A stretch of DNA of 64,000 bases from Opitutales bacterium (GCA_017440935.1 JAFSAO010000020.1:13955-77954); one strand, 5' to 3'; shown: positions 1 to 64,000, counted from the first letter of the stretch. Numbers and translations: made by a program. Notes: a model not told the origin generated them from the letters alone.

Positions 1-49
1 GGCTTTTTTTTTGAAATGCTGTCCGTTCCCTCAGGAACGGGAATTTACT

Positions 50-979
50 TTAGTTCTCCGCCTTTTTCCCGGCGGCACGCAGTTGCCATGAGTTCCACAG
101 ATTGTGGCACACGACGTAAAACGTGGGTCCGAGTGCGACGATCGGGTTGAAAAACGCAAGCCCGACCCAGAGCATGAGCATCGTGTTTTTCTGCCCGACG
201 GATTGAGAGCATTCCCGCCGGAAATGCGGTTCTCCGAGCTGATAGCCTGCCGCAAAATTCACGGCGCAGAGAATCGCCGAAAGAGCAAAAATTTCCGCCA
301 AAATCATCAGCGAAAGGTTTTCCTGCCGAACAATGTAGGCAGCACTTTGCGCGCAAACCGTGAACAGCATTACCATCCACAGATAAAACGAGAGAAATTT
401 CCAACGGCGGATAAATTGTGCGGCGGCGGGAACGAAATTTCGGAAAAGCACGGAGAGGACAAACGGAATTCCGATAAGAAGAATCGTTTTCCACGCCAGT
501 GCAAATGTATCGATTTGTATCGCGTTTCCAATGACAAGTGCGACGAGAGGAGCCAGCGCAAACGCCGTGAAAAGGTTTGTAGAAACCACACTCACGGTCA
601 CGTAATCTTCCCGCCGACCGAGCAGATGTGTGATGACGGGAGCGGCGTTTGCCGTCGGTGTCATTCCGATGAGAAATGCCATGATGGCGAAGTTTTCGTC
701 TCCGGTCAGTTTTTTTACGAGAAAATAAGCGCCCGTGGCGAGCGCGACCATGAAAACGGGAATGCGGACGTGACTCCATCCCGTGCTTTTTTTGCTGAAA
801 TTTACGTCGATGAACGAAAAAAGCAGCATCACCATAATCATCAGCGGCACAAAGTTGCCCGCGTAGTTGTCGAAAAACGTGCCGGATGCCCGCCACAGCA
901 CGGGAACGCTTCCGCCGAGGATCATCGCCGAAACGAGGCAGAGCATACGCCGTATGCCGGGGTTGATATGAATTTTCAT
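50..979 (-). CDS. Bile acid:sodium symporter (BASS/SBF)-like membrane transporter
   Basis: About 10 hydrophobic helices; motifs PTANAAPVIT and SQSVGQKNT are typical of BASS-like carriers. Start moved to the ATG at 979 (MKIHINPG) because the longer ORF overlaps the divergent gene. Confidence 0.7.
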   Translation of the reverse strand: MKIHINPGIRRMLCLVSAMILGGSVPVLWRASGTFFDNYAGNFVPLMIMVMLLFSFIDVNFSKKSTGWSHVRIPVFMVALATGAYFLVKKLTGDENFAIMAFLIGMTPTANAAPVITHLLGRREDYVTVSVVSTNLFTAFALAPLVALVIGNAIQIDTFALAWKTILLIGIPFVLSVLFRNFVPAAAQFIRRWKFLSFYLWMVMLFTVCAQSAAYIVRQENLSLMILAEIFALSAILCAVNFAAGYQLGEPHFRRECSQSVGQKNTMLMLWVGLAFFNPIVALGPTFYVVCHNLWNSWQLRAAGKKAEN

Positions 980-1136
980 CGTTCCCGCAGAGTATACCGA
1001 TTCGGTTCCGGAATCAATGAGCAAGCCGCGTTCCCGTGCTCGGCGAATACGGATTTTCGTCGTGCTTCGGGTATCTTTCCCCTTTTCGCGGAAACGAAAA
1101 GCGGATAAAGTTTTGCTCAAAAATTTTTTTCCGACG

Positions 1137-4082
1137 ATGACGCAAAAAACGATGAGCGAAAAAAATCTTTGGCAGCGGCTTCCGGTGCGCTGGCGCGTGA
1201 TTTTCCTGTTTTTGGCACTGGTGGGTGCTTCTTACGGCGTGCGGCATTGGTTCCCGATGATGCCGGAGCTACGCGACGGGCAAGCCTGCGTCGAAGTTGA
1301 CGAGCTTAGCGTCGAATCCGTTTGGGAAACGCCGGAAGATTTGCGCGATGCCGCGGTAAAGGCGGGAAAAACCTTGCCCGAAATTTCTCAAAAAACGGCG
1401 AGGCTGAACGGTTTTTACGTTTCAAAACTTTTGCCGACCGGGCAAAAAATCAAAATCGCGTATTCGGAATTTTCTCCGGAAAACGTGAAGATGCCTGTGC
1501 CTCCTTCCGTTCCCGCGTCCACTTCGGCGGAAAACAAATCCGCTTTGGAAGCGGCGAAAGAAAACGGACGGGAACTTTACGATTCTTCCAAGCGCGCGGT
1601 AATCGAAGCGTGGAAGAATTGGCGTGACGGCGAAGCGGAACGCGTTCCCGTGCTTTTGTTGCACGGAGCAGCAAGAGACGGGGCTTCGCTCGACGAGCTG
1701 GCACGGGAAATCGTCCGCACGGGAACGGCAACGCGCGTCATCGTGCCGGATTTGCCCGGCGCGGGAGCGTCTCAGCGTGAAGTTGCGGATTATTCCATTC
1801 AGGCGGCGGCGGGCGAAATGTTTGAACTTTTAAATGCGCTCGGCATCGAGAAAGTGAACGTGCTCGGATTCGGGCAGGGCGGCGGTGCGGCGATTTACAT
1901 GGCACATCTGGCGCCGGAACGAGTGAAGTCTCTCGCCTTGGTTTCGTCGACGGGAGCGCAGGAATTTGAACTGCTCGGAAATCACATCGTCAACAAAATC
2001 GTCTACACGTTTCATCTCGGATTTTTCAAACTTGCTCAAGACGTGTTGCCGCATTTCGGATTGATGGACGCGGGCAACGTCAACAAAGCGTTTGCGCGAA
2101 TGTTGTGGGATTCCGACATGAGCGATTTGAAGCAATTTCTGCGCGATTGGCAGGGACCGCTTTTTCTTGCACACGGGAACGACGACATTGTTACGCCCGC
2201 CGTTGCCGCTGAGTATTCGGCGAAACTTGCTCCGCAAGCGCAAACACACTTCGTTCCGGGCGGGCATCATGTTTTTCTCGAAAATCCGGTTGCGTTGGCG
2301 GACTCCTACGCGGCGTTTCTCGGGCGCGTTGCCGTTCCCGCCGAAGCGAAAAAACTTTCGCGTGCTGCTCCCGTTCCCGTCGCGGAAGCGTTCCCGCCGA
2401 TTGAGGCGGCGCACGGCGTGCGTGTGCTCGTGCTCATGCTCGTGATTTTGGTGTGCACGTTTGTCGCGGAAGATCCGACTTGCCTCGCCTCGGGTTTGCT
2501 TGTTGCGCAAGGACTGATCGAATTTATCCCGGCGACGATTGCGTGCCTTGTCGGGATTTTTATCGGCGACAGCGTGCTTTACCTCATCGGGCGTTTTCTC
2601 GGGCGTCCGGTTTTGCGCAAGGCTCCGTTCAAATGGATTATTTCCGAGCAGGAAGTGGATCGTATGTCGGATTGGTTTGATAAAAATCCGAAAGGTTTTG
2701 CACTGATTGTTTCATCGCGCTTTATCCCGGGATCGCGCGTGCCGACGTTTGTCGCCGCCGGCATCATGAAGCTGAATATGGTGAAGCTCATTATGCTGTT
2801 TTTCATTGCCGCCGCCGTGTGGACGCCGCCGCTGATTTTGCTTGCGGAAAAAGTCGGTGCGGGCGTTATCGACAAATTTAAGGAATGGCACCACAACGCG
2901 GCGTGGATTGTCATTGGTGCGATTCTCGGATTGTGGTTGCTTACGCACTACGTCATTCCCGCGTTTACCTGGCGCGGTCGCCGCCGCCATGTGATGATGC
3001 GCCGCCGCTGGACGCGGCACGAATTTTGGCCGCATTTTATTTTGGCGATTCCGCCGATGCTAAATTACCTGTGGCAGTCGGTGATTCACCGTTCGTTTAC
3101 GCTGTTTACGCTGGCGAATCGCGGGCTCGGCGCGGACGGCGGTTTGCCTTCCGGCTCGAAGTTTGAGCATTACACGAAATTTTTGTCGGACAAAACGAAC
3201 CCGGCGGGTGCGGCAGTTTCCGTCAAAACCGCGCTCGTTTCCGTAAACGAAAATCTCGACGCGCGCACGGAAGACGTGCTCGCTCTGATGCGCGAGAACG
3301 AAATTGCGTTCCCGTGCGTGATGAAGCCGGAAATCGGAGACGGCGGTGTAGGTGTGTGCATCGTGCGTTCCCGCGAGCATTTGCGCAACTGGCTCGAAGT
3401 GAATCCGGACTCGGCGATGGTTCAGGAATTTGTCGGCGGGAACGAATATGAAGTTGTTTGGTCGCGTCGTCCGGGGCGCCCGGACGGTCGTATTCAAACC
3501 GTTGTGGAAAAAGATTTCGTCGTCGTAAAAGGCGACGGTGAACGCAAACTCGAAGATTTGATTTGGGCGGACGATAAGGGCGTTTCCAACGGGAAACTTT
3601 TCTCGAAACTCAATTTCCGCGAAGCCAATCGCGTGCTTGAAGCGGGAGAAACTTACGCCCTCGCGCCGATCGGTTCCCGCATCAAAGGCGCAAACTTCAT
3701 CTCGCGTCCGGAACTGCGCGCGGGAGCGCTCGCCGACGTGATCGACTGCCTCGCCGACGCTTGCGGTGACGTTCATTATCTCGTGCTCGACGTTCGCGCG
3801 GAAAATGACGCGGCCCTTGCCGACGGCAAAAACATCCGCATCACCGGAGTCAAGGGCGCGGGAGCGACGGCGGGAACGATTTTTGACGGCTATGTTCGCA
3901 TGGGCATGGCGTATTCCCGCGCGTTCCGTCAGATGAATTACTGCTTCGGAATCGGGGCGGAGGTTCGCGACGAGCAGGGCGTAAAGCCTGCGATTTCCGC
4001 GTTTCGTCTTTTCGAAATGTGGGGCACCGCGCGCGGTCGTTCCGACAATTATGTAAAAATTCCCCACGACGAGGATTCCTAG
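1137..4082 (+). CDS. Fusion of alpha/beta-hydrolase-fold domain, DedA (SNARE-associated/VTT) membrane domain and ATP-grasp-like domain
   Basis: Hydrolase fold: LLHG, PDLPGAGAS, GFGQGG elbow, HGNDD, GGHH. DedA: AEDPTC, GDSVLYLIGR, SRFIPGSR. ATP-grasp: FPCVMKPEIGDGGVGV, VQEFV. The start is 1137 or 1152. Confidence 0.8.
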   Translation: MTQKTMSEKNLWQRLPVRWRVIFLFLALVGASYGVRHWFPMMPELRDGQACVEVDELSVESVWETPEDLRDAAVKAGKTLPEISQKTARLNGFYVSKLLPTGQKIKIAYSEFSPENVKMPVPPSVPASTSAENKSALEAAKENGRELYDSSKRAVIEAWKNWRDGEAERVPVLLLHGAARDGASLDELAREIVRTGTATRVIVPDLPGAGASQREVADYSIQAAAGEMFELLNALGIEKVNVLGFGQGGGAAIYMAHLAPERVKSLALVSSTGAQEFELLGNHIVNKIVYTFHLGFFKLAQDVLPHFGLMDAGNVNKAFARMLWDSDMSDLKQFLRDWQGPLFLAHGNDDIVTPAVAAEYSAKLAPQAQTHFVPGGHHVFLENPVALADSYAAFLGRVAVPAEAKKLSRAAPVPVAEAFPPIEAAHGVRVLVLMLVILVCTFVAEDPTCLASGLLVAQGLIEFIPATIACLVGIFIGDSVLYLIGRFLGRPVLRKAPFKWIISEQEVDRMSDWFDKNPKGFALIVSSRFIPGSRVPTFVAAGIMKLNMVKLIMLFFIAAAVWTPPLILLAEKVGAGVIDKFKEWHHNAAWIVIGAILGLWLLTHYVIPAFTWRGRRRHVMMRRRWTRHEFWPHFILAIPPMLNYLWQSVIHRSFTLFTLANRGLGADGGLPSGSKFEHYTKFLSDKTNPAGAAVSVKTALVSVNENLDARTEDVLALMRENEIAFPCVMKPEIGDGGVGVCIVRSREHLRNWLEVNPDSAMVQEFVGGNEYEVVWSRRPGRPDGRIQTVVEKDFVVVKGDGERKLEDLIWADDKGVSNGKLFSKLNFREANRVLEAGETYALAPIGSRIKGANFISRPELRAGALADVIDCLADACGDVHYLVLDVRAENDAALADGKNIRITGVKGAGATAGTIFDGYVRMGMAYSRAFRQMNYCFGIGAEVRDEQGVKPAISAFRLFEMWGTARGRSDNYVKIPHDEDS

Positions 4083-4088
4083 TTTATT

Positions 4089-5768
4089 ATGAAAATAAAG
4101 ATCTTACTTCTTGTCTCGCTCTCTCTTTCTCTTTTGCCCGTAAGCTCTCAGGCTGTTTTTTCTGCTTGGGTCGTAACGGAAAGCGTTGAGCCGAGAGAGG
4201 TGCCGGAAACCGTGAAGGATCGGTTGCTTTGGCTGAAGTTAAGAGAAGCAATCGACACACGAAATTTTGATGAACTTGAGACTATCATTAAGCAAAATCC
4301 GCAAGTATTGACGCGTGAAAATGCGAAATATGCGGCAACTTACGGAAATCCGGATAGCGTTCAGGTCTTTGTTGAGCTCGCACAAAACGCGGGCATGGCG
4401 AGGGTTTGCGACGTTATGCCGATCGCTGCTATTTCTTCTCCGCGGGCGGAGGAAATACTGGCTCGTTTATCCGATTGCGGGATTAATGTCGGAACGACGG
4501 AGGTTGCTCGGACATTTGCATATAATCAGGCTTTGGGAATGCGCGTCTCCAACGATGACACACCGGATCCGCTGGATTGGAAGGTCGTTACGCCGGATTC
4601 GAAGGGCGGGTTGCGTCCGCGAGCAAGCGTGTGGCGAATGAGTGTTTTGGAGACGTTAGTGCGCCACGGCTTGAACGTTAATACGAAGGAATATGAAAAC
4701 GGGGTGGAATTTTATCCTGTAATTTTGGATGTTTGGAATAATCCGACATATTTTGATCGCGTGGCATTTTTTAAAACAGGCGTAGATCCGAATGCGTTCG
4801 TTCGCATAGATATTCCGCTTGCGCCCGAGAATATTTTCGACCGGAGATCATTATTGGGAACTGCGGTGGAACAGGACGATCTTCCGCTTGTGCGTCTTTT
4901 GATCGAAGGCGGGGCAGATGTGAACGCGCTTGTTCTCGGTCGTCCAATTCCCGTGTCCGATGTTCCGACTGCCGAATCCTATCACTTCTGGGAGACGCCG
5001 TTAGATAGGGCACTTCTCCGAGGGAACGGGGAAATCGCCCGATATTTAATTAGGCACGGCGCAAAACTTTCCCAAAAAATCGAAGGGCAGGTGCGGGTTT
5101 TACAAAAACGCAAAAAAGCAGAGCTCGAGAGTCTGAAAAAGACCGGAATGCCTTTGAGCAACGCTGCACGGAACAGAGTCGCGAAACTCGATAATATTCT
5201 GAATTTGTATCGCGAGTTGGGAGTTCCCGTTTTTGAGAACGTGGAACCGAAGGGTCCGAATGATCAGATGAAAATTCTGCTTCTCGTTAACGATATTCCC
5301 AAGGCAATAAGACTTTGGGAAACGGAAAAGGAGAATCCCGGCATACTTATAAAAACGGTGGCATCCTATCTTGAAAAAAATGCTTCGCCGGAATTGATAT
5401 CCGCCGTATTGAAACGCGTTCCCTCTGATAATAAACTGATAGTGAAAGCTTTTTTTTCGCAAATTCAAAAAGGGAATTTAAGCGGAGTAAGAGCATTCGT
5501 CGAAAACGGAGTAAGCGTGAACGCAACGGATTGGACGAACGCGTCTGCCCTTTTTTCCGCCGTAATGAATCGAAAAATCGAAATCGTGAAATATCTCGTT
5601 GAAAACGGCGCGGACATTCATTCTAAAACTTATCCGGGATACACGCCGTTTTCTTATGCAGAAGGTTTGCGGAGATCGGGCGTGGCAGAAATTTCGAATT
5701 ATTTGCGAGAGGCAGACGCTTCGCGTGAACGCGAAGAAAAGGCAAAAGGAAAGGAACTTGGAAAATGA
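4089..5768 (+). CDS. Secreted ankyrin-repeat protein
   Basis: N-terminal signal peptide; ankyrin repeats such as SLLGTAVEQDDLPLVRLLIEGGADVNA, TPLDRALLRGNGEIARYLIRHGA and SALFSAVMNRKIEIVKYLVENGADIH. Confidence 0.85.
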   Translation: MKIKILLLVSLSLSLLPVSSQAVFSAWVVTESVEPREVPETVKDRLLWLKLREAIDTRNFDELETIIKQNPQVLTRENAKYAATYGNPDSVQVFVELAQNAGMARVCDVMPIAAISSPRAEEILARLSDCGINVGTTEVARTFAYNQALGMRVSNDDTPDPLDWKVVTPDSKGGLRPRASVWRMSVLETLVRHGLNVNTKEYENGVEFYPVILDVWNNPTYFDRVAFFKTGVDPNAFVRIDIPLAPENIFDRRSLLGTAVEQDDLPLVRLLIEGGADVNALVLGRPIPVSDVPTAESYHFWETPLDRALLRGNGEIARYLIRHGAKLSQKIEGQVRVLQKRKKAELESLKKTGMPLSNAARNRVAKLDNILNLYRELGVPVFENVEPKGPNDQMKILLLVNDIPKAIRLWETEKENPGILIKTVASYLEKNASPELISAVLKRVPSDNKLIVKAFFSQIQKGNLSGVRAFVENGVSVNATDWTNASALFSAVMNRKIEIVKYLVENGADIHSKTYPGYTPFSYAEGLRRSGVAEISNYLREADASREREEKAKGKELGK

Positions 5769-7429
5769 CGATCTCAAAATACGGAATTTCTTTCGGATCA
5801 GTTCTTGGCGTATTCGTCGTAGCCGGATGTTTTTCCGAGGTTCGGGAATTTGAAAACGTTCCCGCGGTGGAGCTCTCCAGAACTTATTCTATTGAAAAAA
5901 CACGAGCGAAACACGGCAATCGGGACTCGGAAAAGCGTGCAGCGCGTTTGGAAAAAGCGCTCCTGATGTGTTCCGCCGACGAAAAAAATACGCCAGACAT
6001 TGACGGGCGAACGCCTGCGCATTTCTTCGCGGGAGCGACAGACAAAGATTTTCTTGAAAAATGGATTGCATCCGGCGGGCGTGTCGATTTGCGCGATTTT
6101 TGCAATGCAGCACCGCTTTCTGCTGCGGTCGCAGAAAGAAACATGTCGCTGGTCCGCGAGTTGTTTCTTGCGATAAGGACGGATTCTGTGGCGGTCGGGC
6201 ATGCAATGTTTACGGCGATTTCCCATTGTTGCTATGATGAGCTTCGCCTGATGTTATCTTTGGGCGCAGATCCGAACACGCGTATTGTCGGAACGGCGTT
6301 TGTCGGAAAATCGGATCCGGCTTTGTTTTACGCATTGGAGCAAAAAGATGCGACTGCCGTAAAAATACTTTTGGAAGCCGGTGCAAATCCGAATGCCAGA
6401 GGTGTTTTTATAAAAGACAGCCCAGACGGATTAAGCGCACTTTGTGTCGGGCTAGAACAAAGTCCGGAAGTCGTTGAGGCACTGTTGAAGGCGGGAGCAA
6501 ATCCGAATGAAATGCTTCGAGAAAAGGATGGTGCGCAACGTCCGATTCTCTTCCGCTCGTTCGGAAGTCTATCACGATCATTTGCCGGAGAGGACGCATC
6601 TTTTAGAAATACGCAACTGTTGGTTGAATACGGAGCAAAAATTGATGCGGAGCGAACGTTCCCGAGCGAACAAACTCATTCGGCGGCATCGTCTTTGTGG
6701 TTGACGCCGTTGGACGAAGCGATACTTCAGGGAAACGTTCCCGTCATAAAATATTTGCTCGAGTGCGGAGCAAAATTTTCTCCGAATGTTGGTGCTCAGT
6801 TGCTCCACATTCAAAATTTGCTGAAACGCAATAAGGGTGAAAATCCGGTATCCATTTACGATGTTCCTGTTTTTTATAAGGAAACGGTCGCCTATTTGAA
6901 GGCAATGGGGGTAGAATCGAAACCGTTGCCGATTTCGGCTTTCGATAAAATCAAGAATACTCTTTATCGGGAGCGCAGGAAGCCGGAGCGCGTTCGCGAG
7001 TTGCTCGCCTCGCCCGAAATAGCAGAACGGGAGCGTTGCGAATTAGCGAGTTTCGTTCTTTCACGGGCAGATTTTCGGGATACCGAAGTTTTCAAAATTT
7101 GTTATGCCTGCGGCGGGCGTGTCCCCGATGAAAGACTCTCCCGTATTATTGAAGACGATGATGCGGAATTGGCAGAAGTGATTGCCTCCGCAATCGGGGC
7201 ATCCGGAATCAATGCGCTCGATGCAGACGGAGTAACTCCGCTGTTTCTTTCTGTTGCTTTTGGTAGTCTGAATGTTTTTCGCGTGTTTTTAAAATACGGT
7301 GGAGATGTCAACGGCCCCGGTTACGAAGGATATTCGATATTGCACGCGGCGGAATGCGGTTTTGCCGCCTTTCCGAACTCTGAGAGAGAAGAAATATTGC
7401 AAATCGTGAAAGCACATACTGTAAAATAA
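5765..7429 (+). CDS. Ankyrin-repeat lipoprotein
   Basis: Lipobox VVAG-C; repeats GRTPAHF, ALFYALEQKDATAVKILLEAGANPNA, TPLDEAILQGNVPVIKYLLECGA and TPLFLSVAFG; ATGA overlap with the upstream gene. Confidence 0.85.
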   Translation: MTISKYGISFGSVLGVFVVAGCFSEVREFENVPAVELSRTYSIEKTRAKHGNRDSEKRAARLEKALLMCSADEKNTPDIDGRTPAHFFAGATDKDFLEKWIASGGRVDLRDFCNAAPLSAAVAERNMSLVRELFLAIRTDSVAVGHAMFTAISHCCYDELRLMLSLGADPNTRIVGTAFVGKSDPALFYALEQKDATAVKILLEAGANPNARGVFIKDSPDGLSALCVGLEQSPEVVEALLKAGANPNEMLREKDGAQRPILFRSFGSLSRSFAGEDASFRNTQLLVEYGAKIDAERTFPSEQTHSAASSLWLTPLDEAILQGNVPVIKYLLECGAKFSPNVGAQLLHIQNLLKRNKGENPVSIYDVPVFYKETVAYLKAMGVESKPLPISAFDKIKNTLYRERRKPERVRELLASPEIAERERCELASFVLSRADFRDTEVFKICYACGGRVPDERLSRIIEDDDAELAEVIASAIGASGINALDADGVTPLFLSVAFGSLNVFRVFLKYGGDVNGPGYEGYSILHAAECGFAAFPNSEREEILQIVKAHTVK

Positions 7430-7488
7430 CTTTTGCGTGCGTCTTCGCTGAAGTGCTTGGAAAAACGGGAACGGAAAATTTTCGGACG

Positions 7489-10400
7489 ATGGAAAACGGG
7501 CGGGAGTGCGATTTTATTACGGGCGTGAGCGCGGCGGCGGGCGGCGCGGCGCTTGCGGAACTGTTGCGCGCGGGAACTCCGCTGACGGTCGTTGTCGGTT
7601 CCAATCTTTCCCGCTCCGAGCTCCTTGCGGAAGACAGCATTTTTTTCGCAAATTTTTTGCGAAAAAAACGCGTTGGGCACCAAGCCTCAAACCTCAAACG
7701 AGAATACCGGAACGAAAAAATTGTTCGGAACCCGATGCCTGATACCTGGAGCCCGTGCGTGCATGGGTTGCCGAGGATTTCAGACGAAGAGGGCGGCGCG
7801 GCGAGTTTTGAAAATGCGTGCGATTTACTGACTGTGCTTTCGGCGCTTCGCCGCGCGGGAACGGACAATCCGATGATTCTCGCTTCCACGCCGGAAGCGC
7901 TTTTCTGCGCCGTTCCCGCACCCGAGGCGATGGCGAGCCGCGAGCTTGAACTTGTGCGCGGTATGAAAATTTCTCTGCGGGAGGTCGCGGAAACGCTCGC
8001 TAAGGATTTTGACTACGACAACGAAGCGCTTTGCGAATCTCCCGGGCAATTTTCCGTGCGCGGTGGGCTTATCGACGTTTATCCGCTGAATGCTTCCGCT
8101 CCCGTGCGTATTGATTTTTTCGGAGACGAAATCGAAGCGTTGCGCGAGTTCGACCCCGAAACACAACGCAGTTTGAGAAAGTTGGAAAAAATCGTCGTCG
8201 CCGCGGGAACGCCTGTCGGCGATGCCTCCGCTCCGCAACGCGAGGGCGCGCTTTTTGATTATTTTCCGGCGGAGACGGAAATTGTTTTTGCCGAGCCGGA
8301 GTCGCTTGAAAACATCGGGGATTTGCTCTCCGTCGCGAAACAAAGATCGTGGCGGGTGCGCGGTTTTTCCTCGCTCGACGAAGTGCCGGAAAGTTTGTGC
8401 GGGAACACGGAACTCGGTGTTCCCGTCGCGTGGCAATGCGCAGATTTAGAGGAAATTGCCTACGGTGAAATCTCGTCGGCAATCGGCTCGGAACGGCTTG
8501 CCGAGGCGGAGGAAATTCGCCGGCGAGTGTTGGTGCAGCTCGATGTTTGGTCGCGGAAGGGAGAGCGCGTGGTTATTGTCGCCGAGAGCGAAGGCAGCGA
8601 GGAACGGTTGCGCGAAATTCTCGATGAGGAGCGACAGGCGGGAACGCTGAAAAAATCGTTTTCTCCGGAGATCGTGCGCGGGAACATCGGCGCCGGTTTT
8701 CGCATCGTTGTCGGGGAAAGTTCGTGCGTTCCGGAGGAAGTTGACGGCGCGCTTGTCGTGGCGACGGAGCGGGAACTTTTCGGGCGGAATCGCCGCCGTG
8801 TTTCGCGCGTGCGTTCCCGCCGTTTGCCGCATAAATCGCGCGTGGAGCAACTTCTCGATTTTAACGAGCTTGTCGACGGCGATATGCTCGTTCACTTGCA
8901 ACACGGCGTTTGCGTTTATCGCGGAATCCAAACCTTTGAGCGTGCGGCGGGAACGAAAGAGGAAATGCTCGCGCTCGAATTTGAAAACAAGGTGAAGCTC
9001 TATGTGCCGTTTCGCGAAGCGCATTTGCTTTCGCGCTATGTCGGCTTGCGGAAAACTTTGCCGAAGCTCGGAAAAGTCGGCGGGAACGCGTGGGAAAAGA
9101 CGCTCAAGGCGGCGGAAAAAGCCACGCTCGATTTTGCCGCCGAGTTGCTTTCGCTTCAGGCTTCGCGGCAAACCAAGCCCGGCATCGCCGCGCGTCCGGA
9201 CGAAGAATTGCCGTGGTTGCGAGAGTTTGAGCGTGCGTTCCCGTTTACCGAAACTCCCGACCAAGCCAAGGCAATTTGCGAAACGAAACTCGATATGGAA
9301 CGCGCGTCGCCGATGGATCGCCTCGTGTGCGGCGACGTCGGGTTCGGGAAAACGGAAGTCGCTATTCGTGCCGCGTTCAAAGCGGTGCTGAGCGGCTATC
9401 AGGTGGCGTTTCTTGCACCGACGACCGTGCTTGCGCAACAGCATTTTAATACGTTTCGCGACCGTTTCGCGCAGTATCCGGTTTCCGTCGAAATGCTTTC
9501 GCGTTTTCGCACTTCTTCTCAGCGCACAAAAATTCTCGCCCAGCTCGAAAGCGGTTCGCTCGACATCGTTATCGGCACGCACGCGCTGCTTTCGTCGTCC
9601 GTAAAATTTAAAAAACTCGGGTTGCTTGTCATCGACGAGGAACACCGTTTCGGTGTGAAACAAAAGGAGAAAATAAAACGTTTTCGCGAGAACGTCGATG
9701 TGTTGGCGATGAGCGCCACTCCGATCCCGCGCACGCTTTACATGGCATTGATGGGCGCGCGCGACTTGAGCGTAATTGAAACTGCGCCGCGGGAACGCCT
9801 GCCGATTCAGACCGTGGTCAAAACCTACGATCCGAAGCTCGTCAAGGAAGCGATTTTACACGAGCTCGGGCGCGGCGGTCAGGTGTTTTATCTGCATAAT
9901 CGCGTGGACACGATTTATCAGGTCGCCGAATTGCTGAAAATGCTCGTTCCCGAGGCAAAAATCGCCGTCGGGCACGGACAGATGGACGAGCGCGATTTGG
10001 AATGCGTAATGACGGATTTCGTCGCCGGGCGCTTCGACGTGCTTGTTTGCACGACGATTATTGAAACGGGGTTGGATATTCCGAACTGCAATACGATTAT
10101 CATTGAAGCGGCAGACCGTTTCGGGCTTTCGCAGCTTTACCAGCTACGCGGGCGCGTCGGGCGCTTTAATCGTCAGGCGTATGCGTATTTACTCTTACAT
10201 CGCCATCGCACGCTGATTTCTTCCGCGAAAAAACGCCTTTCTGCGCTGCGCCAATTCAACCAGCTCGGAGCCGGATTCCGCATCGCCATGCGCGACCTCG
10301 AACTTCGCGGCGCCGGAAATATTCTCGGAATGAAACAGAGCGGGCACATTGCCGGAGTCGGGTTCGAGTTGTATTGCCAGCTTCTTCGGCAAAGCATTGC

Positions 10401-10908
10401 GGGCTTAAAGGGCGAAAATCCGATAAAAATTTTTCGTGCGGAAATTCGGCTCGATTTTGTGCGTTTTTCAAATTTGCCCGAATCCGGTGCAAAGGACGTG
10501 CGCACCGAGTATCAGATTCTGAAAGACGAAAAAAATGCCGCGCATCTCGGCGACGTTATCGTCGCGACGCTTCCCGCAGAGTATATTTCCGACGTGCGCG
10601 TGCGCATCGACGCATTTCGCCGGCTCGCTATGGCGGGAACGCCCGACGAGGTGCGCGTGGTCGCAGAATCCATGGAGGATCGTTTCGGGAAACTCCCGCC
10701 CGAGGCGAAAGCATTTTGCGCGATTGCCGAGTTGCGCTGTATTGCCGAGGCGCACGGGATCGCCGAACTCGAAACCGAGGCGGGTGCGATTCGTGCGCGT
10801 CGGCGTCGCGGAGATTTTGTCAAAATCGGTGTCAATTTCCCGCGCCTTTCCTCGCTCGCGCCGCTCAAGCGCCTCCGCGAGCTTCGCGATTTTCTCCTCC
10901 GCCAATAG
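7489..10908 (+). CDS. mfd: Transcription-repair coupling factor
   Basis: UvrB-like N-terminus (GQFSVRGGLIDVYP), CarD/RID domain, helicase motifs CGDVGFGKTE, DEEH and QLRGRVGR, TRG motif RDLELRGAGNILG. The ATG at 7489 is preferred over the GTG at 7453. Confidence 0.97.
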   Translation: MENGRECDFITGVSAAAGGAALAELLRAGTPLTVVVGSNLSRSELLAEDSIFFANFLRKKRVGHQASNLKREYRNEKIVRNPMPDTWSPCVHGLPRISDEEGGAASFENACDLLTVLSALRRAGTDNPMILASTPEALFCAVPAPEAMASRELELVRGMKISLREVAETLAKDFDYDNEALCESPGQFSVRGGLIDVYPLNASAPVRIDFFGDEIEALREFDPETQRSLRKLEKIVVAAGTPVGDASAPQREGALFDYFPAETEIVFAEPESLENIGDLLSVAKQRSWRVRGFSSLDEVPESLCGNTELGVPVAWQCADLEEIAYGEISSAIGSERLAEAEEIRRRVLVQLDVWSRKGERVVIVAESEGSEERLREILDEERQAGTLKKSFSPEIVRGNIGAGFRIVVGESSCVPEEVDGALVVATERELFGRNRRRVSRVRSRRLPHKSRVEQLLDFNELVDGDMLVHLQHGVCVYRGIQTFERAAGTKEEMLALEFENKVKLYVPFREAHLLSRYVGLRKTLPKLGKVGGNAWEKTLKAAEKATLDFAAELLSLQASRQTKPGIAARPDEELPWLREFERAFPFTETPDQAKAICETKLDMERASPMDRLVCGDVGFGKTEVAIRAAFKAVLSGYQVAFLAPTTVLAQQHFNTFRDRFAQYPVSVEMLSRFRTSSQRTKILAQLESGSLDIVIGTHALLSSSVKFKKLGLLVIDEEHRFGVKQKEKIKRFRENVDVLAMSATPIPRTLYMALMGARDLSVIETAPRERLPIQTVVKTYDPKLVKEAILHELGRGGQVFYLHNRVDTIYQVAELLKMLVPEAKIAVGHGQMDERDLECVMTDFVAGRFDVLVCTTIIETGLDIPNCNTIIIEAADRFGLSQLYQLRGRVGRFNRQAYAYLLLHRHRTLISSAKKRLSALRQFNQLGAGFRIAMRDLELRGAGNILGMKQSGHIAGVGFELYCQLLRQSIAGLKGENPIKIFRAEIRLDFVRFSNLPESGAKDVRTEYQILKDEKNAAHLGDVIVATLPAEYISDVRVRIDAFRRLAMAGTPDEVRVVAESMEDRFGKLPPEAKAFCAIAELRCIAEAHGIAELETEAGAIRARRRRGDFVKIGVNFPRLSSLAPLKRLRELRDFLLRQ

Positions 10909-12111: not shown

Positions 12112-12156
12112 AAAAAGAGGCGTTCCCGCGATTGATTTTGCGGGAACGCTTTTTTC
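12112..12156. terminator. Bidirectional intrinsic terminator between convergent galE and truA
   Basis: Stem CGTTCCCGC (12121-12129) / GCGGGAACG (12140-12148), with an A-run before and a T-run after. Confidence 0.8.
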
Positions 12157-13105: not shown

Positions 13106-14542
13106 ATGGAAAATGTTTTAAACGGCGCATTTGTCGAAAAAACGCTTGGCGCGAAATGGCGCGGCGGGAACGTTCCCGGGAAAATCGCGGGGGCTGCAAT
13201 CGACACTCGAAAAATTTTGCCCGGCGAAATTTTTGTCGCCATCAAAACGGCAAACCGCGACGGACACGATTTTCTCGAAACGGCGCGGGAACGCGGCGCG
13301 GCGGGAGCGCTCGTCTCGCGTTTTGTTCCCGAAGTCGCGCTTCCGCAAATTGTCGTTCCCGACACGGTCGCGGCTCTGCAGAAGCTCGCGGCGGTGCATC
13401 GCATCGAAAATTTCCGTGTCGGGAAAACGGTTTTCGGCGTTACGGGAAGCGTCGGGAAAACTTCGACGAAGGATTTGCTCGCGCTGATTTTGTCGCAGGA
13501 AGCGCCGACTTTGGCGACGGAGAAAAATTTGAACAACACGCTCGGCGTGCCGCTTACGCTTTTGAAAATAAATCCGGAAGTCCACCGCTTTGCTGTGGTT
13601 GAAGCGGGCATGAGCGTTCCCGGCGAACTCGGCGTTTCCGCGCAAATGATTTTTCCGGATGTCGCGTTGGTCACCAATGTCAAGCCGGCGCACCTCGAAG
13701 GCTTGGGCACAATGGAAAACATCGCGCGGGAAAAAGCCTCGCTCGCGGCGGATGTTCACGACGGGAGCGTGATTTTCAATGCGGATTTGTTGCAATACGA
13801 AAGTTTCCGGAAGATTCGCGCGGCACTTGCCGATGTGCTTTCCCGCAATGCGGAAGAAGCGGCACTTACAGAATCATGGAAGCAAAGCGATGAATTTGAA
13901 ATCGCTTATTTTGCGGATAGCGTCGCTTGCGAAATTCTGGATGCGGGGAATAATGTATTTTATTTAAAAATACAGGCGACGCACGAAAAGGAAGGTGTTT
14001 TTACCGTGCGGAACATTTCGCGCGGCTTGGCGGAAAACGCGGCTTTGGCGATTCAGGCTGCGAGCGAATTCGTTTCGCCGGAAAAAATTCAGGCGGCGCT
14101 CGACGCGTGGAAACCGTCTGCAAATCGCGGCGAGGTGCGGGAACGCGCGTGCGGCGGAAAAATTTTTGTCGATTGCTACAATGCTTCTCCGGCATCGATG
14201 CTGGATTCGGCGGATGCTTTTGCGACGCGTTTTGCGGGAACTCCGGAAATGCCGCGCCTTTTCGTGCTCGGCGGCATGGGAGAACTGGGGGAAACTTCGG
14301 AACCTCTTCATCGCGAAGTCGGCGAAAAATTGCCGCTTTGCGCGGAGACGGATTTTCTTGCGCTTTTCGGCGGGAACGCTGCGCAAATCGGGCAGGGCGC
14401 GGTCGCGGCGGGTTTTCCGCGGGAACGCGTGCACATGTTCGACGATATCGTCGAGCTTCGTGAATTTATCGCGGCATTTCGCGGGAACGTCATGCTCAAA
14501 GGCTCGCGTACTTTTGCCCTTGAGCGCGCAATCCCTGCGTGA
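13106..14542 (+). CDS. murF: UDP-N-acetylmuramoyl-tripeptide--D-alanyl-D-alanine ligase
   Basis: DTRKILPGEIFVAI, VTGSVGKTSTK P-loop, NNTLGVPLT, DCYNASPASM, GGMGELG and KGSR motifs. Confidence 0.95.
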   Translation: MENVLNGAFVEKTLGAKWRGGNVPGKIAGAAIDTRKILPGEIFVAIKTANRDGHDFLETARERGAAGALVSRFVPEVALPQIVVPDTVAALQKLAAVHRIENFRVGKTVFGVTGSVGKTSTKDLLALILSQEAPTLATEKNLNNTLGVPLTLLKINPEVHRFAVVEAGMSVPGELGVSAQMIFPDVALVTNVKPAHLEGLGTMENIAREKASLAADVHDGSVIFNADLLQYESFRKIRAALADVLSRNAEEAALTESWKQSDEFEIAYFADSVACEILDAGNNVFYLKIQATHEKEGVFTVRNISRGLAENAALAIQAASEFVSPEKIQAALDAWKPSANRGEVRERACGGKIFVDCYNASPASMLDSADAFATRFAGTPEMPRLFVLGGMGELGETSEPLHREVGEKLPLCAETDFLALFGGNAAQIGQGAVAAGFPRERVHMFDDIVELREFIAAFRGNVMLKGSRTFALERAIPA

Positions 14543-19832: not shown

Positions 19833-20266
19833 GTTTTTTTGAGCGCATTTTTCAAAAAATCTTCAAAAAAAACGTTCCCGCGAAAAAGAAAACATGGCGG
19901 CGGGAACGCGGGGATGCGGGGGAAAAATTTGCCGCCGATTTTCTGAAAAAACAATGCGGCATGCAAATTCTCTGCCGTAATTTTTGCGCGGGAAAGGACG
20001 AAATCGACATCGTCGCGACAGACTCCGAAACCCTCGTTTTTGTCGAAGTAAAAACACGCTCGGAAAATGACACGCGCGGTGCGGTTTTCGCTGTGGATGC
20101 CAGAAAAAGAGCCGCCTTGCGCCGTGCCGCCGATGCGTATTTGCACGGATTGCGGGAACGCCCGAAATCGACTCGCTTAGACGTGGTCGAAGTTTACGTG
20201 CGCGAATCCGACGGCGCGATGCGTGCCGTGCTCCACCGCGCGTTGAATTGGCGTTCCCGCCGCTAA
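19829..20266 (+). CDS. yraN: YraN family (UPF0102) nuclease
   Basis: GEKFAADFL, NFCAGKDEIDIVA, LVFVEVKTR and RLDVVEV motifs; the GTG start overlaps the upstream TGA. Confidence 0.88.
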   Translation: MSFFERIFQKIFKKNVPAKKKTWRRERGDAGEKFAADFLKKQCGMQILCRNFCAGKDEIDIVATDSETLVFVEVKTRSENDTRGAVFAVDARKRAALRRAADAYLHGLRERPKSTRLDVVEVYVRESDGAMRAVLHRALNWRSRR

Positions 20267-27899: not shown

Positions 27900-27953
27900 T
27901 TTTTATAAAAACTTGCGTTCCCGCGGGAACGGGCGTAAAAGGGCGAAACAGCA

Positions 27954-29165
27954 ATGAAAATTCCCGATGCATTGGCGCCGTTTCGTTCCCGAAATTACAG
28001 ATTGTTCTATTCGGGGCACGCGATTTCGCTGACGGGAAGTTGGATGACGCAAACGGCAATAGGCTGGCTGGTTTATGCGTTGACGGGGTCGACGACGATG
28101 TCCGGCGTGGCAATGTTTTTGAGTCAGGTTTCGCACTTTTTCGTGACGCCGATTGCGGGTGTGATGATTGACCGAGTAAATCGCCGCACGATGTTGCTCG
28201 CCGTGCAGTTCGGCGCGTTGGCTTCTGCCGTGGGGCTGACGCTTTTTCAGGTTTTTGACGGGAACGCCGTGTGGCTTTTGCTGACGCTGTGCTTTTTGCG
28301 CGGACTTGTCGGGGCGGTAGAAATTCCGACGCGGCAATCGCTAATTGCGAAATTTATCGACGATAAAAAAGATTTGCCGCAGGCAATCGGGCTCAATTCC
28401 ACGTTGTTCAACTTTACGCGCATTGTGGCTCCCGCTGTTGCCGGAGAAGTTTACGCGCTTTTTGGCGCAGCGTGTTGTTTCGCTACGGACGCGGTCTTGA
28501 TGATTCCGACGATTTTTCTTCTTGCGGCGATGCGCTTTGACGCAAAGCCCGTTCCCGCCGAAGCCAATTGCGGTCCGATCTGTTCGCTGTTCGAGGGCAT
28601 TCGCTATATGTGGAGTGTTCCCGTGTTGCGCACGGTGATTTGCTGTATCGCGTTGTTGAGCACGTTCGGTTTCAGTTACACGGTTTTGTTACCGATGTTC
28701 GCCGACAAAATTTACGCGGGAACGCCGGAGCTTTACGGGCGTATGCTGACGGTTACGGGAGTGGGAGCGATACTTGCGGCGCTTTTGATCGCTTTCTTGA
28801 AAAGAGCACGGTTTTTGCCGCGTTTTCTGATTTTGGGGAATTGCCTCGTCGGGGCGTCTCTTTTGGTGATTTCGACGGCTCCCGCGCTGTGGTTGTTTTT
28901 CGTGATGCTTTTTACGGCGGGATTCGGGAGTGTGTTGGTTGGCGCTTCATCGAATACGTTGGTGCAAATGAACCTTTGCGAGCGGTTTCGCGGACGCGTA
29001 ATCAGCCTTTACACAATGGCGTTTACGGGAACGTTCCCGTTCGGGACGTTGTTGCTCGGCGGATTTAACGAAGTGGTCGGCTTGGAGCCGTGCCTCGGAC
29101 TGAGCGCCGGCGTTTGTTTCGGGCTTGCGATCTGGTTTTTCATTCGCCGGAAAATTTTTGCGTAA
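27954..29165 (+). CDS. MFS transporter (MFS_3 / DHA3-like)
   Basis: FRSRNYRLFYSG, GVMIDRVNRR motif A, 12 hydrophobic helices and FRGRVISLY. Confidence 0.88.
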   Translation: MKIPDALAPFRSRNYRLFYSGHAISLTGSWMTQTAIGWLVYALTGSTTMSGVAMFLSQVSHFFVTPIAGVMIDRVNRRTMLLAVQFGALASAVGLTLFQVFDGNAVWLLLTLCFLRGLVGAVEIPTRQSLIAKFIDDKKDLPQAIGLNSTLFNFTRIVAPAVAGEVYALFGAACCFATDAVLMIPTIFLLAAMRFDAKPVPAEANCGPICSLFEGIRYMWSVPVLRTVICCIALLSTFGFSYTVLLPMFADKIYAGTPELYGRMLTVTGVGAILAALLIAFLKRARFLPRFLILGNCLVGASLLVISTAPALWLFFVMLFTAGFGSVLVGASSNTLVQMNLCERFRGRVISLYTMAFTGTFPFGTLLLGGFNEVVGLEPCLGLSAGVCFGLAIWFFIRRKIFA

Positions 29166-29285: not shown

Positions 29286-31859
<2,574 letters not shown>

Positions 31860-31904
31860 GCGTTCCCGCGAAGTTTTTAACCTTTTAAAAATTTGTAAAA
31901 ACAA

Positions 31905-61207: not shown

Positions 61208-63253
61208 TTACTCCGCCAAGCCTTCGCGCTTGAGGAGAGCAGCGGGGTCGGGCGCGCGTCCCATAAAATCGCGGAAGAGCGTTTCGGCGGGAGCGGCGTT
61301 CCCGCGCGCGAGGATTTTTTCGCGAAATTCGCGTCCCGTTTTTTCGTTCAAAATTCCCTCGTTCAAAAAGCGCGTGAAGCAGTCGGCTTCGAGCATTTCC
61401 GCCCATTTGTAGGAATAATAACCTGCCGCGTAGCCGGTGGATTCGGAAAACAGGTGCAGGAATTTTCGTGCCATGGAAATCTGCGGGAACGCCGTCGGCA
61501 CGAGGTAATCGGCGAGCGTTTCGTTCCAGTAATTTTCCAAGTCGCAATCCTTGTATTTCGCGGTTTCGATGTGGAAATCCAAGTCCATTTTCCCGAAGGA
61601 AAGCTGGCGCACGCAGGCGCTTGCGGCGCGGAAATTTTGCGCACGCAGGAGTTTTTCCAAAAGTTCCTGCGGGAGCGGCTCGCCGGTTTCAAAATGCTTG
61701 GCAAAAAGGCTCAGCGACTCCGCGTGCTTGCACCAGTTTTCCATGATTTGCGAGGGAAGTTCGACGAAATCCCACGCGACGTTCGTTCCCGCGAGTTCAG
61801 GAATTTCGACTTCGCTCAAAACGTGGTGAAGCAAGTGACCGAATTCGTGGAAAATCGTCAGCACTTCATCGAACGAAAGCAACGCAGGTTTGCCGTCCAC
61901 AGCGGGCGACATATTGCCGCAAATCAGCCCGAGGTGCGCGGGAACGCCTTCGCCGCGCGTTGCGAGAAAATTCATCCATGCGCCGGCGCGCTTAGTTTCG
62001 CGCGGATGCCAATCCGTGTAAAATGCGCCGAGCATTTTTTCGCCGTCAAAAACTTCATAGGTTTTCACTTCCGGATGCCATGCGGGAACGCCCGTTTTTT
62101 CGACAATTTTTACGCCGAAAAGTTTTTCCGCAATCGCGAAAGCTCCGGCGATGACCGCGTTGACTTCAAAATACGGGCGCAGGCTTTCCGCATCAAAATC
62201 GTAGCGTTCGCGTCGCAGTTTTTCCGCCCAAAATCCGAGTGCCCACGGAGCGAGTTTTCCCGCTTCCGTCGCCGTCGCGTCGCCGTGTTCCCGCGCGAAT
62301 TTCGCAAGGTCGTCCGTTTCTTTTTTGAAAAAAGAATCCACGCGGGAGCGCAAATTTTCGACAAAATCGCGCGCGTTTTTCCCGCTTTTCGCCATGCGGC
62401 GCGAAGTCGTGTAATCGGCAAAATCGGCGAAACCGAGGAGCTTCGCTTTTTCGTCGCGCAGGGCGAGGATTTCGCGGATGAGCGGCGCATTGTCAAACTT
62501 CGCGTCGTCGCGGGCAACGGCGTTGGAGGCTTCCCAAAACTCGCGGCGCAGAGCATCGTTTTCCGCATATTGCATCACGGGAACGAGCGACGGCGCTTGG
62601 AGCGTGAAGCGGAATTCGCCGTCGCGGTTTTTCGCTTTGGCGGACGCGGCGGCGGCGGTTTTCGCGCTCGCGGGAATGCCGACGAGAAGCGTTTCGTCGG
62701 CGACGAATTTTTCCCATGCGTTGGTGGAATCGAGCACGTTTTCGCCGAATTTTGTCATGAGTTCGGCGAGTTTGGCGTTGATGGCGGCGAGGCGGGATTT
62801 TTTGTCGTCGGGCAAATCCGCGCCGTTTTCGCGGAAGTCGGCGAGCGTTTCGTTGAGAAAACGCTGTTGCACGGCACCGAGCGTTCCCGCGGGAATGCGT
62901 TCTGCGGCGGCTTTGATTTTTTCCCAAAGGCGCGCGTTGAGCGTGAGCGAGCTGAAAAATTCCGTTACTTTCGGCAAAACGGTGTTGTAGGCTTCGCGGA
63001 GCGCGGGTGTGTTTTCCACGCTTTCGAGGTGGCAGACGCGTCCCCACGCGCGACCGAGTTCCCGCGTGGCGCGGGCAAAGCCGAGAATTGTGGCGTCGAA
63101 GGAAATTTCGTCCGGAGTTTGTGCGCAGATTTTTTCGATATTTGCGCGTGCGCGTTCAAGCGCGAATTCGATGTCGGGAACGATGCGCTCCGGCGTCAGT
63201 TGCGCCCAATCGACATAAAAATCTTCCGAAAGAAAAGGATGTTCTGCGTTCAT
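61208..63253 (-). CDS. M3 family oligopeptidase A (PrlC/OpdA-like)
   Basis: KRAGAWM, HEFGH, WDFVELPSQIMENW and YAAGYYSYKWAE motifs. Start at ATG 63253. Confidence 0.93.
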   Translation of the reverse strand: MNAEHPFLSEDFYVDWAQLTPERIVPDIEFALERARANIEKICAQTPDEISFDATILGFARATRELGRAWGRVCHLESVENTPALREAYNTVLPKVTEFFSSLTLNARLWEKIKAAAERIPAGTLGAVQQRFLNETLADFRENGADLPDDKKSRLAAINAKLAELMTKFGENVLDSTNAWEKFVADETLLVGIPASAKTAAAASAKAKNRDGEFRFTLQAPSLVPVMQYAENDALRREFWEASNAVARDDAKFDNAPLIREILALRDEKAKLLGFADFADYTTSRRMAKSGKNARDFVENLRSRVDSFFKKETDDLAKFAREHGDATATEAGKLAPWALGFWAEKLRRERYDFDAESLRPYFEVNAVIAGAFAIAEKLFGVKIVEKTGVPAWHPEVKTYEVFDGEKMLGAFYTDWHPRETKRAGAWMNFLATRGEGVPAHLGLICGNMSPAVDGKPALLSFDEVLTIFHEFGHLLHHVLSEVEIPELAGTNVAWDFVELPSQIMENWCKHAESLSLFAKHFETGEPLPQELLEKLLRAQNFRAASACVRQLSFGKMDLDFHIETAKYKDCDLENYWNETLADYLVPTAFPQISMARKFLHLFSESTGYAAGYYSYKWAEMLEADCFTRFLNEGILNEKTGREFREKILARGNAAPAETLFRDFMGRAPDPAALLKREGLAE

Positions 63254-63411
63254 ATTTATTTTTTTTCGGAAAAATCTAATCCCGAGCTTCCGCCGAAACA
63301 AAACAAATTTCGGCAGCGGGAATCGCGATTTCATGCGGCATATTTATTTAATAGGCGTTGAATTAATGCCCGTTCTCCGTAAAATTCTGCGCTTTCAAAC
63401 TTTTTTACGCT

Positions 63412-64000
63412 ATGACACCTGAAAAAATTTCCGTGAATGCGGACGGCACGCTTGCCGTTCCCGCGAACCCGATTATTCCGTTTATCCGCGGCGACGGGAG
63501 CGGTCCGGACATTTGGTCCGCCGCCGTACGCGTGCTCGATGCCGCCGTTGAAAAAGCTTACGCGGGAACGCGAAAAATCGAATGGTGCGAAGTTTTTGCC
63601 GGAGAAAACGCGTTTAAAAAACTCGGCACGTGGTTGCCCGACGAAACGGTCGAGATTTTCCGCGAATACCTTGTCGGCATCAAAGGTCCGCTGACAACGC
63701 CGGTCGGTAAAGGCGTGCGCTCGATTAACGTGACGCTCCGCCAGACGTTGGACCTGTTTGTTTGTTTGCGTCCGGTGAAATATTTTCGCGGAATCGAAAC
63801 GCCGGTGAAAGATCCGTCGCAGGTCGACATGGTCGTTTTCCGCGAAAACACGGAAGATATTTATGCGGGAATTGACTGGACGGCGGGAACGCCGAAAGCG
63901 CGCCGCATGATTGAATTTCTCAAAACCGAATTCCCCGACGATTTCAAAAAAATCCGTTTCGGTGCGGAAACGCCGGACGAAATCGGTTTCGGCGTGAAGC
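63412..64000 (+). CDS. icd: NADP-dependent isocitrate dehydrogenase (truncated by the window end)
   Basis: Translation MTPEKI...[15 protein letters not shown]...[31 protein letters not shown]...[11 protein letters not shown]; absent from the ORF track because it has no stop in the window. Confidence 0.95.

Follow-up and report, generated by a model that had tools for sequence, protein, structure and literature searches.

A 2025 survey recognises two proteobacterial families with uptake sequences, the Neisseriaceae and the Pasteurellaceae (10.1101/2025.10.24.684340). The DNA uptake sequence (DUS) of the former and the uptake signal sequence (USS) of the latter share one set of signatures: an asymmetric word, strand symmetry, frame independence, inverted pairs at terminators, depletion in imported DNA and in genes under strong constraint, and confinement to a single lineage (PMC2817400, PMC3630211, 10.1101/2025.10.24.684340). 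The coevolution of uptake sequences and proteomes is also documented, including the distortion of codons and peptides by the USS (PMC2817400). A debated third case, the hyperabundant octamer HIP1 of the cyanobacteria, is over-represented 15-300-fold and conserved beyond expectation (PMC5861425), with an unsettled function that has been linked to transformation (PMC13756078). Here we describe the octamer CGGGAACG (reverse complement CGTTCCCG), which fills a 64-kb stretch of DNA from an Opitutales bacterium (G000:C18:13955-77954; the whole of this stretch is hereafter the window) as well as the rest of its genome (G000; 1,835,357 bp in 22 contigs, 53% GC). A first-pass annotation of the window had proposed the word as a candidate uptake sequence or HIP1-like system.

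An exact search of the window gave 194 copies (106 on the plus strand, 88 on the minus strand), about 3 per kb and in genes and spacers alike, against a mean of 7.1 (standard deviation 2.6, maximum 17) in 100 dinucleotide-preserving shuffles. The whole genome has 5,274 copies, or one in every 348 bp (2.9 per kb), which makes CGGGAACG the top 8-mer, the next unrelated one (CGCCGCCG) having 1,361 copies; at every length from k=6 to k=12, the list of k-mers is led by the word and its sub-words. Enrichment over base composition is 76-fold (69 copies expected). The 1,311 genes predicted by simple codon-model calling (84% coverage of the genome) hold 4,307 copies, where shuffling codon order within genes predicts 157 (27-fold) and a synonymous shuffle that keeps the proteins and the codon usage of each gene predicts 485 ± 19, an 8.9-fold excess which is conservative because CGGGAACG itself inflates codon usage. 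A highest-order Markov model predicts what is observed (5,155 versus 5,274 copies) and is uninformative, as the word is itself the source of the 7-mer counts. Called genes carry the word at 2.8 per kb and the remaining DNA at 3.4 per kb; genes contain 82% of the copies, with 2,405 in sense and 1,902 in antisense orientation, and all six reading frames are used, yielding the peptides AGT/TGT, RER, xGNx, xVPx, xFP and RSR. The hand counts of the first-pass annotation (11 copies in positions 1-2400, 12 in mfd, 9 in murF and 7 in gyrB) were reproduced exactly, and its description of the word as non-palindromic, strand-symmetric, frame-independent and hyperabundant is borne out. Its estimate of an excess of about 100-fold has the right order of magnitude but is too high against dinucleotide or codon nulls, and the enrichment, whose loss under a codon-preserving null it had named as a refutation, persists there.

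The word overrides the choice of codons and reaches into the proteins. Ala-Gly-Thr tripeptides are spelled GCGGGAACG in 83% of cases against 8% predicted by codon usage, Arg-Glu-Arg is spelled CGGGAACGC in 66% although CGG makes up only 11% of arginine codons, Arg-Ser-Arg is spelled CGTTCCCGC in 62% and Val-Pro is spelled GTTCCC in 61%. The tripeptides themselves exceed amino-acid expectation, AGT by 4.9, RER by 4.1, RSR by 3.2 and TGT by 3.4 times, with their permutations at 0.9-1.5 times. Codons and tripeptides are distorted likewise in the genomes G155, G082 and G164, with no such distortion in G030, from a sister/outgroup genus. In a codon alignment of mfd with four relatives, the sites are partly shared by all and partly gains of a single lineage, some of which changed the protein, for example ASTP/ACTP to AGTP (column 613) and AGA/AGV to AGT (column 3589). 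Because there is a 9-fold excess over the synonymous shuffle and AGT, RER and VP are spelled with such bias, CGGGAACG acts at the level of DNA and not of protein; amino-acid usage does not explain it, as the first-pass annotation had argued, since the excess remains when the proteins are kept. Giant proteins of 2,000-4,700 amino acids with xGAGTLxL beta-strand repeats are encoded outside the window at C20:49459-63600, C12:145354-160920 and C18:105452-111460. In these beta-helix proteins nearly every AGT is written as CGGGAACG, with 20-43 copies on one strand (43 in C20:49459-63600), and it is these one-strand runs that produce the local outliers in strand skew.

The perfect word outnumbers every one-mismatch variant of CGGGAACG by a factor of 6-1,300, and the consensus is therefore sharp. 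If these variant counts reflect the specificity of a receptor, positions 1, 2 and 5 of the word would be the most important ones. With all sites aligned the consensus extends to c-R-CGGGAACG-c (C in 48% at -2, G or A in 64% or 24% at -1, C in 48% at +1) and is at background further out; since the flanks are uninformative beyond ±2 bp, the word is a free-standing 8-11-mer and not a piece of a longer repeat. The T-rich 5' flank which the first-pass annotation had noted as frequent is not part of the signal, the flank profile being flat apart from -2, -1 and +1: at 12141 the T-rich flank is the loop of a terminator hairpin, and at the T-rich sites 25648, 36923, 42672 and 60383 no perfect CGTTCCCG partner lies within 25 nt upstream. 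CGGGAACG is not a palindrome, only the outer GCG...CGC of the 10-mer being symmetric. Gaps between copies are near exponential (coefficient of variation 1.06), the one exception being CGTTCCCG...CGGGAACG pairs at a distance of 17-23 bp, which are markedly over-represented. Among the variants, CGGGTACG has only 4 copies, all others having at least 54; it contains GTAC, and its scarcity may reflect avoidance of a restriction site. A second repeated word, AAATTTCAATTTGC(G), unrelated to CGGGAACG, occurs in about 61 copies in the genome.

Using GC skew on contigs as a proxy for the leading strand, the G-rich strand carries 52.4% of CGGGAACG copies. The words GCAGGGCG (155 versus 25) and AGGGCGG (197 versus 26) reach 86-88% on the G-rich strand of the same genome, so the test is able to detect polar words. 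CGGGAACG thus shows no leading-strand polarity although polar words are present in the genome, and a role tied to the direction of replication, of the type of Chi or of the FtsK-orienting polar sequences (KOPS), is not supported; GCAGGGCG and AGGGCGG are themselves candidates for the KOPS or Chi words of this lineage.

Inverted pairs of the form CGTTCCCG-N(<=20)-CGGGAACG number 146 genome-wide, 118 of them intergenic, 101 with a 3' T-run and 75 with an A-run upstream. In 116 genes a perfect pair follows the stop codon within 90 nt, in only 16 does one precede the start, and the hairpin arrangement CGTTCCCG...CGGGAACG accounts for 29% of intergenic copies versus 4% in the opposite arrangement. 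Their sequences indicate that about 115 of these pairs serve as Rho-independent terminators in both directions, with the extended word forming the stem. In the window, the pair between galE and truA (Table 1) is predicted to be one such bidirectional intrinsic terminator. The terminator pairs named by the first-pass annotation as a hallmark of DUS and USS are accordingly present, far more often after stops than before starts; inverted-repeat DUS and USS likewise form terminators (10.1101/2025.10.24.684340).

CGGGAACG is actively maintained in this lineage and is no relic, because 87 of its 99 octamers are intact in G155, the closest sampled species (89.4% nucleotide identity over 32 kb), where a codon-phase-matched control predicts 43 (about 9 standard deviations by our own arithmetic); the word is conserved twice as well as matched octamers, and only 45% of all 8-bp windows are intact. 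Intergenic copies are equally well kept, 11 of 13 being intact versus 40% of all intergenic 8-bp windows in the alignment. About 16 of the 33 motif differences between the two genomes are single CpG transitions, for example TGTTCCCG, CGGGAACA and CAGGAACG.

To place the word phylogenetically, we counted the 10-mer GCGGGAACGC across the order (121 genomes) and the family (61 genomes), and the 11-mer across the phylum (301 genomes). Enrichment is found only in the window's own genus, in all 19 sampled species, 15 strongly and 4 weakly: GCGGGAACGC has 1,600-3,300 copies in 15 of the 19, about 330 in three and 138 in one, so that the motif-rich species have roughly 5-25 times the count of their four motif-poor congeners. 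Counts are at background in four sister genera, in some 40 further families of the order and in the roughly 148 genera surveyed across the phylum. The comparison of related genomes proposed in the first-pass annotation thus restricts the enrichment to a single lineage, one genus among about 148 of the phylum; within it, genomes that were assembled independently, in different studies and from different hosts, have CGGGAACG at equal density. The window's Mfd finds its closest relatives in metagenome-assembled genomes from the gut, labelled Opitutales (from sheep rectum, with 84% identity) and 'Candidatus Spyradenecus' (with 71%); a further two relatives at about 82% carry NCBI labels that are evidently wrong, and other Opitutales reach at most 52%. 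These relatives point to the host being an uncultured, gut-associated member of the Opitutales (Verrucomicrobiota).

Motif density changes within the genus, since the weak species fall, by pilin and RuvX identity, into a more distant subclade which also holds motif-rich species. Two of the motif-poor species, G151 and G172, have CGGGAACG at 0.59 and 0.32 per kb, and a dialect was rejected in both, as they carry the same word and no alternative one. In the sister genus, CGGGTACG, one mismatch from CGGGAACG, is the top 8-mer in the first 80 kb of G030 and stands at 0.12 per kb over 480 kb; it is no dialect, because the copies come from one local repeat-rich gene. G151 has 25% AGT codon occupancy versus 83% in G000 and a 2.3-fold AGT excess versus 4.9-fold, intermediate values that are equally compatible with secondary decay and with a weaker drive and do not tell the two apart. 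Density also varies along the genome with composition: DNA of 54-60% GC has 3.3 copies per kb, whereas DNA below 46% GC has 1.2-1.3. The long motif-free stretches are a low-GC glycan-synthesis cluster (C17:17.6-24.9 kb), restriction-modification genes and the highly conserved ribosomal-protein operon. The depletion in foreign DNA that is characteristic of DUS and USS is therefore seen here in the low-GC islands.

Selection on individual sites cannot plausibly keep more than 5,000 conserved copies that override codons and alter proteins, and a drive is therefore needed. In our analysis, biased uptake coupled to homologous replacement would be the only established drive that gives the full set of signatures, as it does for DUS and USS, and we see about an even chance that CGGGAACG is an independently evolved DNA-uptake or self-recognition sequence which builds up through molecular drive. 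In this scheme, a component on the surface of the type IV pilus/competence apparatus, the best candidate being a minor pilin not related to ComP, would bind double-stranded DNA containing the word, and the word-bearing fragments would enter through a PilQ-type secretin and ComEC. DprA would then load them on RecA, and the homologous resident allele would be replaced. Word-bearing alleles would be imported more often and would spread by molecular drive to every tolerated position, reshaping codon choice and even tripeptide usage, whilst inverted pairs in spacers would be co-opted as terminator stems. Of this scheme, we infer the bias in uptake, what the receptor is and that transformation takes place.

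The genomes encode much of what such a scheme would require. ComEC (581 amino acids, Competence domain only), DprA and a PilB-PilT-PilB cluster are present in 19 of the 19 genus genomes, and a PilQ-type secretin (964 amino acids) in 18, being missing from G170 (92% complete). A PilM-led secretin operon, PilC and the N-methyl domains of five prepilins were confirmed in G000 only; the prepilins, encoded at C13:15459-18824 and C20:76110-76883, are otherwise orphan sequence, with homologues across the genus. A ComEC with the Competence domain only occurs in known competent bacteria (PMC6299819). The search for uptake machinery suggested by the first-pass annotation was therefore successful for ComEC, DprA, PilMQ, PilB/T/C and five prepilins, and unsuccessful for ComEA and for a ComP-type receptor. 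A second secretin (about 780 amino acids), which G000 lacks, marks a subclade of G131, G135, G151, G166, G168, G172 and G174; a third GspE-type ATPase accompanies it in 6 of these 7 genomes and was not detected in the fragmented G174 assembly, and the two probably belong to a type II secretion system. As a driver of the motif this pair was rejected, occurring in rich and poor species with no correlation with density.

Several observations weigh against an uptake sequence. ComEA was not found, the sole HHH_3 (PF12836) match being a Tex-like protein of 829 amino acids, and none of the 19 genus genomes matches ComP_DUS (PF16732) at E <= 0.1. The four motif-poor congeners have the uptake genes just as the motif-rich species do, their listed ComEC, DprA and prepilin frames being open, and homologues of the prepilin cluster occur also in motif-free genera of the family. 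Because they are shared with motif-poor and motif-free relatives, the uptake genes account neither for the existence of the enrichment nor for how strong it is, and the gene inventory permits a DUS-like role without discriminating for it. The core is 8 bp, compared with 9-10 nt in known uptake sequences. A density of 2.9 per kb, near-equal in coding and non-coding DNA (2.8 versus 3.4 per kb), is closer to HIP1; DUS and USS occur at roughly one copy per kb, about a third of the density of CGGGAACG. No competent member of the Opitutales is reported in the literature that we searched, and the same searches returned no paper linking uptake sequences with Verrucomicrobia and, in full text, no description of CGGGAACG, the letters of the motif matching only primers. 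The DUS-like interpretation of the first-pass annotation thus holds for the word, the terminators, the island depletion and the lineage restriction, and fails to find support in ComEA, ComP and a density like that of HIP1.

All signatures except gene content would also follow from any drive that favours the incorporation of motif-bearing DNA. A possible, if unlikely, explanation is that CGGGAACG is an unmethylated self-mark of a new, genome-wide kind inside the cell and no uptake signal, its saturation being driven by a sequence-specific protein that attenuates a nuclease or acts in repair or gene conversion; the genus would then tell its own DNA from foreign DNA by a word and not by modification.

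We regard as clearly unlikely a Chi-like mark read after entry, in which RecBCD or another nuclease/recombinase would recognise CGGGAACG inside the cell and the drive would act at the recombination step: the enzyme would stop degrading, or start recombining, word-bearing linear DNA, and conspecific fragments delivered by transduction, conjugation or vesicles would be integrated preferentially. Homologues of RecB, RecC and RecD are present in G000 (phmmer E 8e-78, 1e-59 and 2e-62), protection of a fragment from both ends predicts the lack of strand polarity that is seen, the absence of ComEA from our searches is irrelevant to such a model, and conservation, proteome remodelling and island depletion fit it equally well. 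However, Chi sites as known elsewhere exceed expectation only a few-fold and run in the direction of replication, unlike a word enriched 27-76-fold with 52% polarity; the strongly polar GCAGGGCG and AGGGCGG in the same genome are better Chi or KOPS candidates; and we know of no case in which Chi builds terminators, as this word does. Phages would be expected to acquire such a mark, yet none of the 2.9 million viral contigs in IMG/VR is motif-dense (maximum 0.9 per kb, including the seeded pair), an argument that is weak in that phages of this genus may be absent from the collection. Contigs with an inverted pair number 44, about the chance number by our estimate, and no clustered regularly interspaced short palindromic repeats (CRISPR) array, through whose spacers phages could be linked, was found in G000.

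A HIP1-like system would link a hyperabundant octamer to at least one conserved orphan DNA methyltransferase, with a debated function that may include methylation-dependent enhancement of transformation or recombination; quasi-periodic spacing is reported for HIP1. One copy per 350 bp, an 8-bp length, near-equal coding and non-coding density and saturation of permissive codons all resemble HIP1 (PMC5861425) more than DUS or USS, and a role in aiding transformation has recently been put forward for HIP1 itself (10.1101/2024.09.10.611283, PMC13756078). Moreover, CGGGAACG has CpG at either end and is mostly lost through CpG transitions. We nevertheless find this explanation improbable, as CGGGAACG is no palindrome, its spacing is near exponential, and none of the eight DNA methyltransferase genes of G000 (three HsdM, two EcoRI-methylase-like, one C5, one small N6 and one type IIG) is conserved across the motif-rich species. 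The screen used catalytic motifs and Pfam, the third HsdM (C16:70645-72330) not itself serving as a query; distribution is sporadic, with most of the genes in strain-variable contexts, and G170 and G159 have only 28-30% HsdM-like matches. The option of a methylase site, raised by the first-pass annotation, therefore finds no conserved candidate across the motif-rich species. The type IIG enzyme (1,228 amino acids), of a class that reads asymmetric words, was rejected as a driver, being present in only 2 of 19 genomes.

The methyltransferase genes that follow lie outside the window. A type I hsdM (C19:20885-22576) with 4 motif copies is 94-99% identical in G164, G059, G155 and G168, of which G059 and G168 have only 52-63% pilin identity to G000 and G155 and G164 have 84-98%; this gene looks like a recent transfer between species, which would mean gene flow inside the genus. 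EcoRI-methylase-family genes at C15:2293-3087 and C6:12114-13226 lie in motif-free, low-GC islands and are sporadic in the genus. In Campylobacter, the RAATTY methyltransferase CtsM marks self DNA for uptake. A C5 cytosine methyltransferase (C16:36491-37795), which adjoins a 5-kb island at 40% GC, has 7 motif copies in 1.3 kb, by which it looks like a long-term resident, and only N-terminal fragments of it are left in G164 and G168.

It is in our view highly improbable that CGGGAACG is bound by an abundant protein particular to the genus, with a role in chromosome organisation or regulation, and that each copy is kept by selection for this binding. A sharp consensus with weak, dyad-like GCG...CGC ends, the conservation of sites and their even distribution along contigs would suit such a protein. 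Selection per site would however be minute over more than 5,000 sites, and yet codon preference is overridden and amino acids are changed; there is no preference for promoters (a pair before 16 starts versus after 116 stops); four congeners manage with 5-10 times fewer copies; and we know of no nucleoid protein that yields an exact octamer enriched 27-76-fold. Finally, a by-product of composition, of codon or amino-acid usage or of a dispersed repeat (a miniature inverted-repeat transposable element or repetitive extragenic palindrome), or an assembly artefact, is excluded despite the one-strand runs in a few giant xGAGTLxL beta-helix proteins and the match to the uninformative Markov null, given that dinucleotide, codon-order and synonymous shuffles all fall short of the count, the flanks carry no information beyond ±2 bp and independent assemblies have the same density.

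The features of the window are collected in Table 1. The motif-free 2.0 kb over the ankyrin-repeat gene exemplifies the depletion of the motif in lower-GC DNA; the longest motif-free stretch of the window (31861-33860) lies behind gyrB, in the region of the presumed gyrA. The first-pass annotation had taken a yraN gene as weak circumstantial support for transformation: yraN was not located in the window by motif regex, and it would not count as specific evidence for DNA uptake.

Table 1. Genes, motif-free DNA and inverted pairs of the word in the window (positions counted from the first nucleotide of the window)
Feature	Position	Strand	Basis or remarks
Motif-free 2.0 kb, 48% GC, over ankyrin-repeat gene	3871..5857		Gap list and ankyrin matches
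mfd, 12 copies	7453..10908	+	TIGR00580, E 1e-282
Inverted pair CGTTCCCG-N12-CGGGAACG	12121..12148		A-rich upstream, T-run downstream; sequence aaaaagaggCGTTCCCGCGATTGATTTTGCGGGAACGcttttttc
murF, 9 copies (6.3 per kb)	13106..14542	+	Includes overlapping palindromic pair CGGGAACGTTCCCG at 13165-13178
Inverted pair CGTTCCCG-N20-CGGGAACG, A-run before	19873..19908		Sequence inspection
Abutting inverted pair CGTTCCCGCGGGAACG in spacer	27916..27931		Exact search
Overlapping pair CGGGAACGTTCCCG	29026..29039		Exact search
gyrB, 7 copies	29295..31859	+	EGDSAGG signature
Open reading frame after gyrB, presumed gyrA, 823 amino acids	31905..34376		1 copy in 2.5 kb, normal GC (53%)
Inverted pair with T-run, putative terminator just past the 31905-34376 open reading frame	34400..34432		Sequence inspection

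A comparable pattern has so far been seen only in the uptake sequences of Neisseria and Haemophilus and in HIP1, which suggests that CGGGAACG is a new self-DNA recognition signal in a new phylum, with the highest density yet seen for such a word. If the uptake reading is true, an uptake word would have originated independently in an uncultured genus of gut Verrucomicrobiota, without a ComP homologue. The motif-rich and motif-poor congeners, with their similar uptake genes, are a natural experiment for mapping the receptor or driver and for separating molecular drive from selection, and the excess of about 5-fold in AGT and 3-4-fold in RER and RSR shows how far a drive at the DNA level can rewrite proteins. 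In practice, CGGGAACG can serve as a near-perfect marker when these genomes are binned or screened for foreign DNA, and it is a candidate handle for the genetic tractability of the clade.

Among the known systems, the DUS of the Neisseriaceae (the core of GCCGTCTGAA and its dialects) resembles CGGGAACG in being non-palindromic, in its thousands of copies on both strands and in all frames, in its terminator pairs, in its depletion from recently acquired DNA and in its restriction to a lineage, and the genus described here has a type IV pilus, ComEC and DprA. It differs in that its sequence and phylum are unrelated, its core is 10-12 bp where that of CGGGAACG is 8 bp, and CGGGAACG is about 3 times denser; ComP_DUS (0 of 19 genus genomes) and ComE/ComEA were not found in our searches, and no dialect was seen in two motif-poor species or in one sister-genus genome. 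The USS of the Pasteurellaceae, with a 9-bp core (AAGTGCGGT or ACAAGCGGT), has the same genomic signatures, including the distortion of codons and peptides (PMC2817400), and its receptor, the minor pilin ComN, is only predicted (10.1101/2025.06.16.659825); in contrast, CGGGAACG has no AT-rich flanking segment, being flat beyond ±2 bp, is denser and belongs to an unrelated taxon. HIP1 (GCGATCGC) is likewise an octamer that occurs inside genes and in all frames at about one copy per gene or denser, but it is a palindrome with conserved orphan methyltransferases (DmtA and DmtC) across most of a phylum, whereas CGGGAACG is asymmetric, has no conserved methyltransferase and is limited to one genus. 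Chi (RecBCD/AddAB) and KOPS (FtsK) are also short, non-palindromic, over-represented words, which are read by motors that process DNA, and RecBCD homologues occur in G000; those words are however polar and modestly enriched, whereas CGGGAACG is unpolarised (52%) and enriched 27-76-fold.

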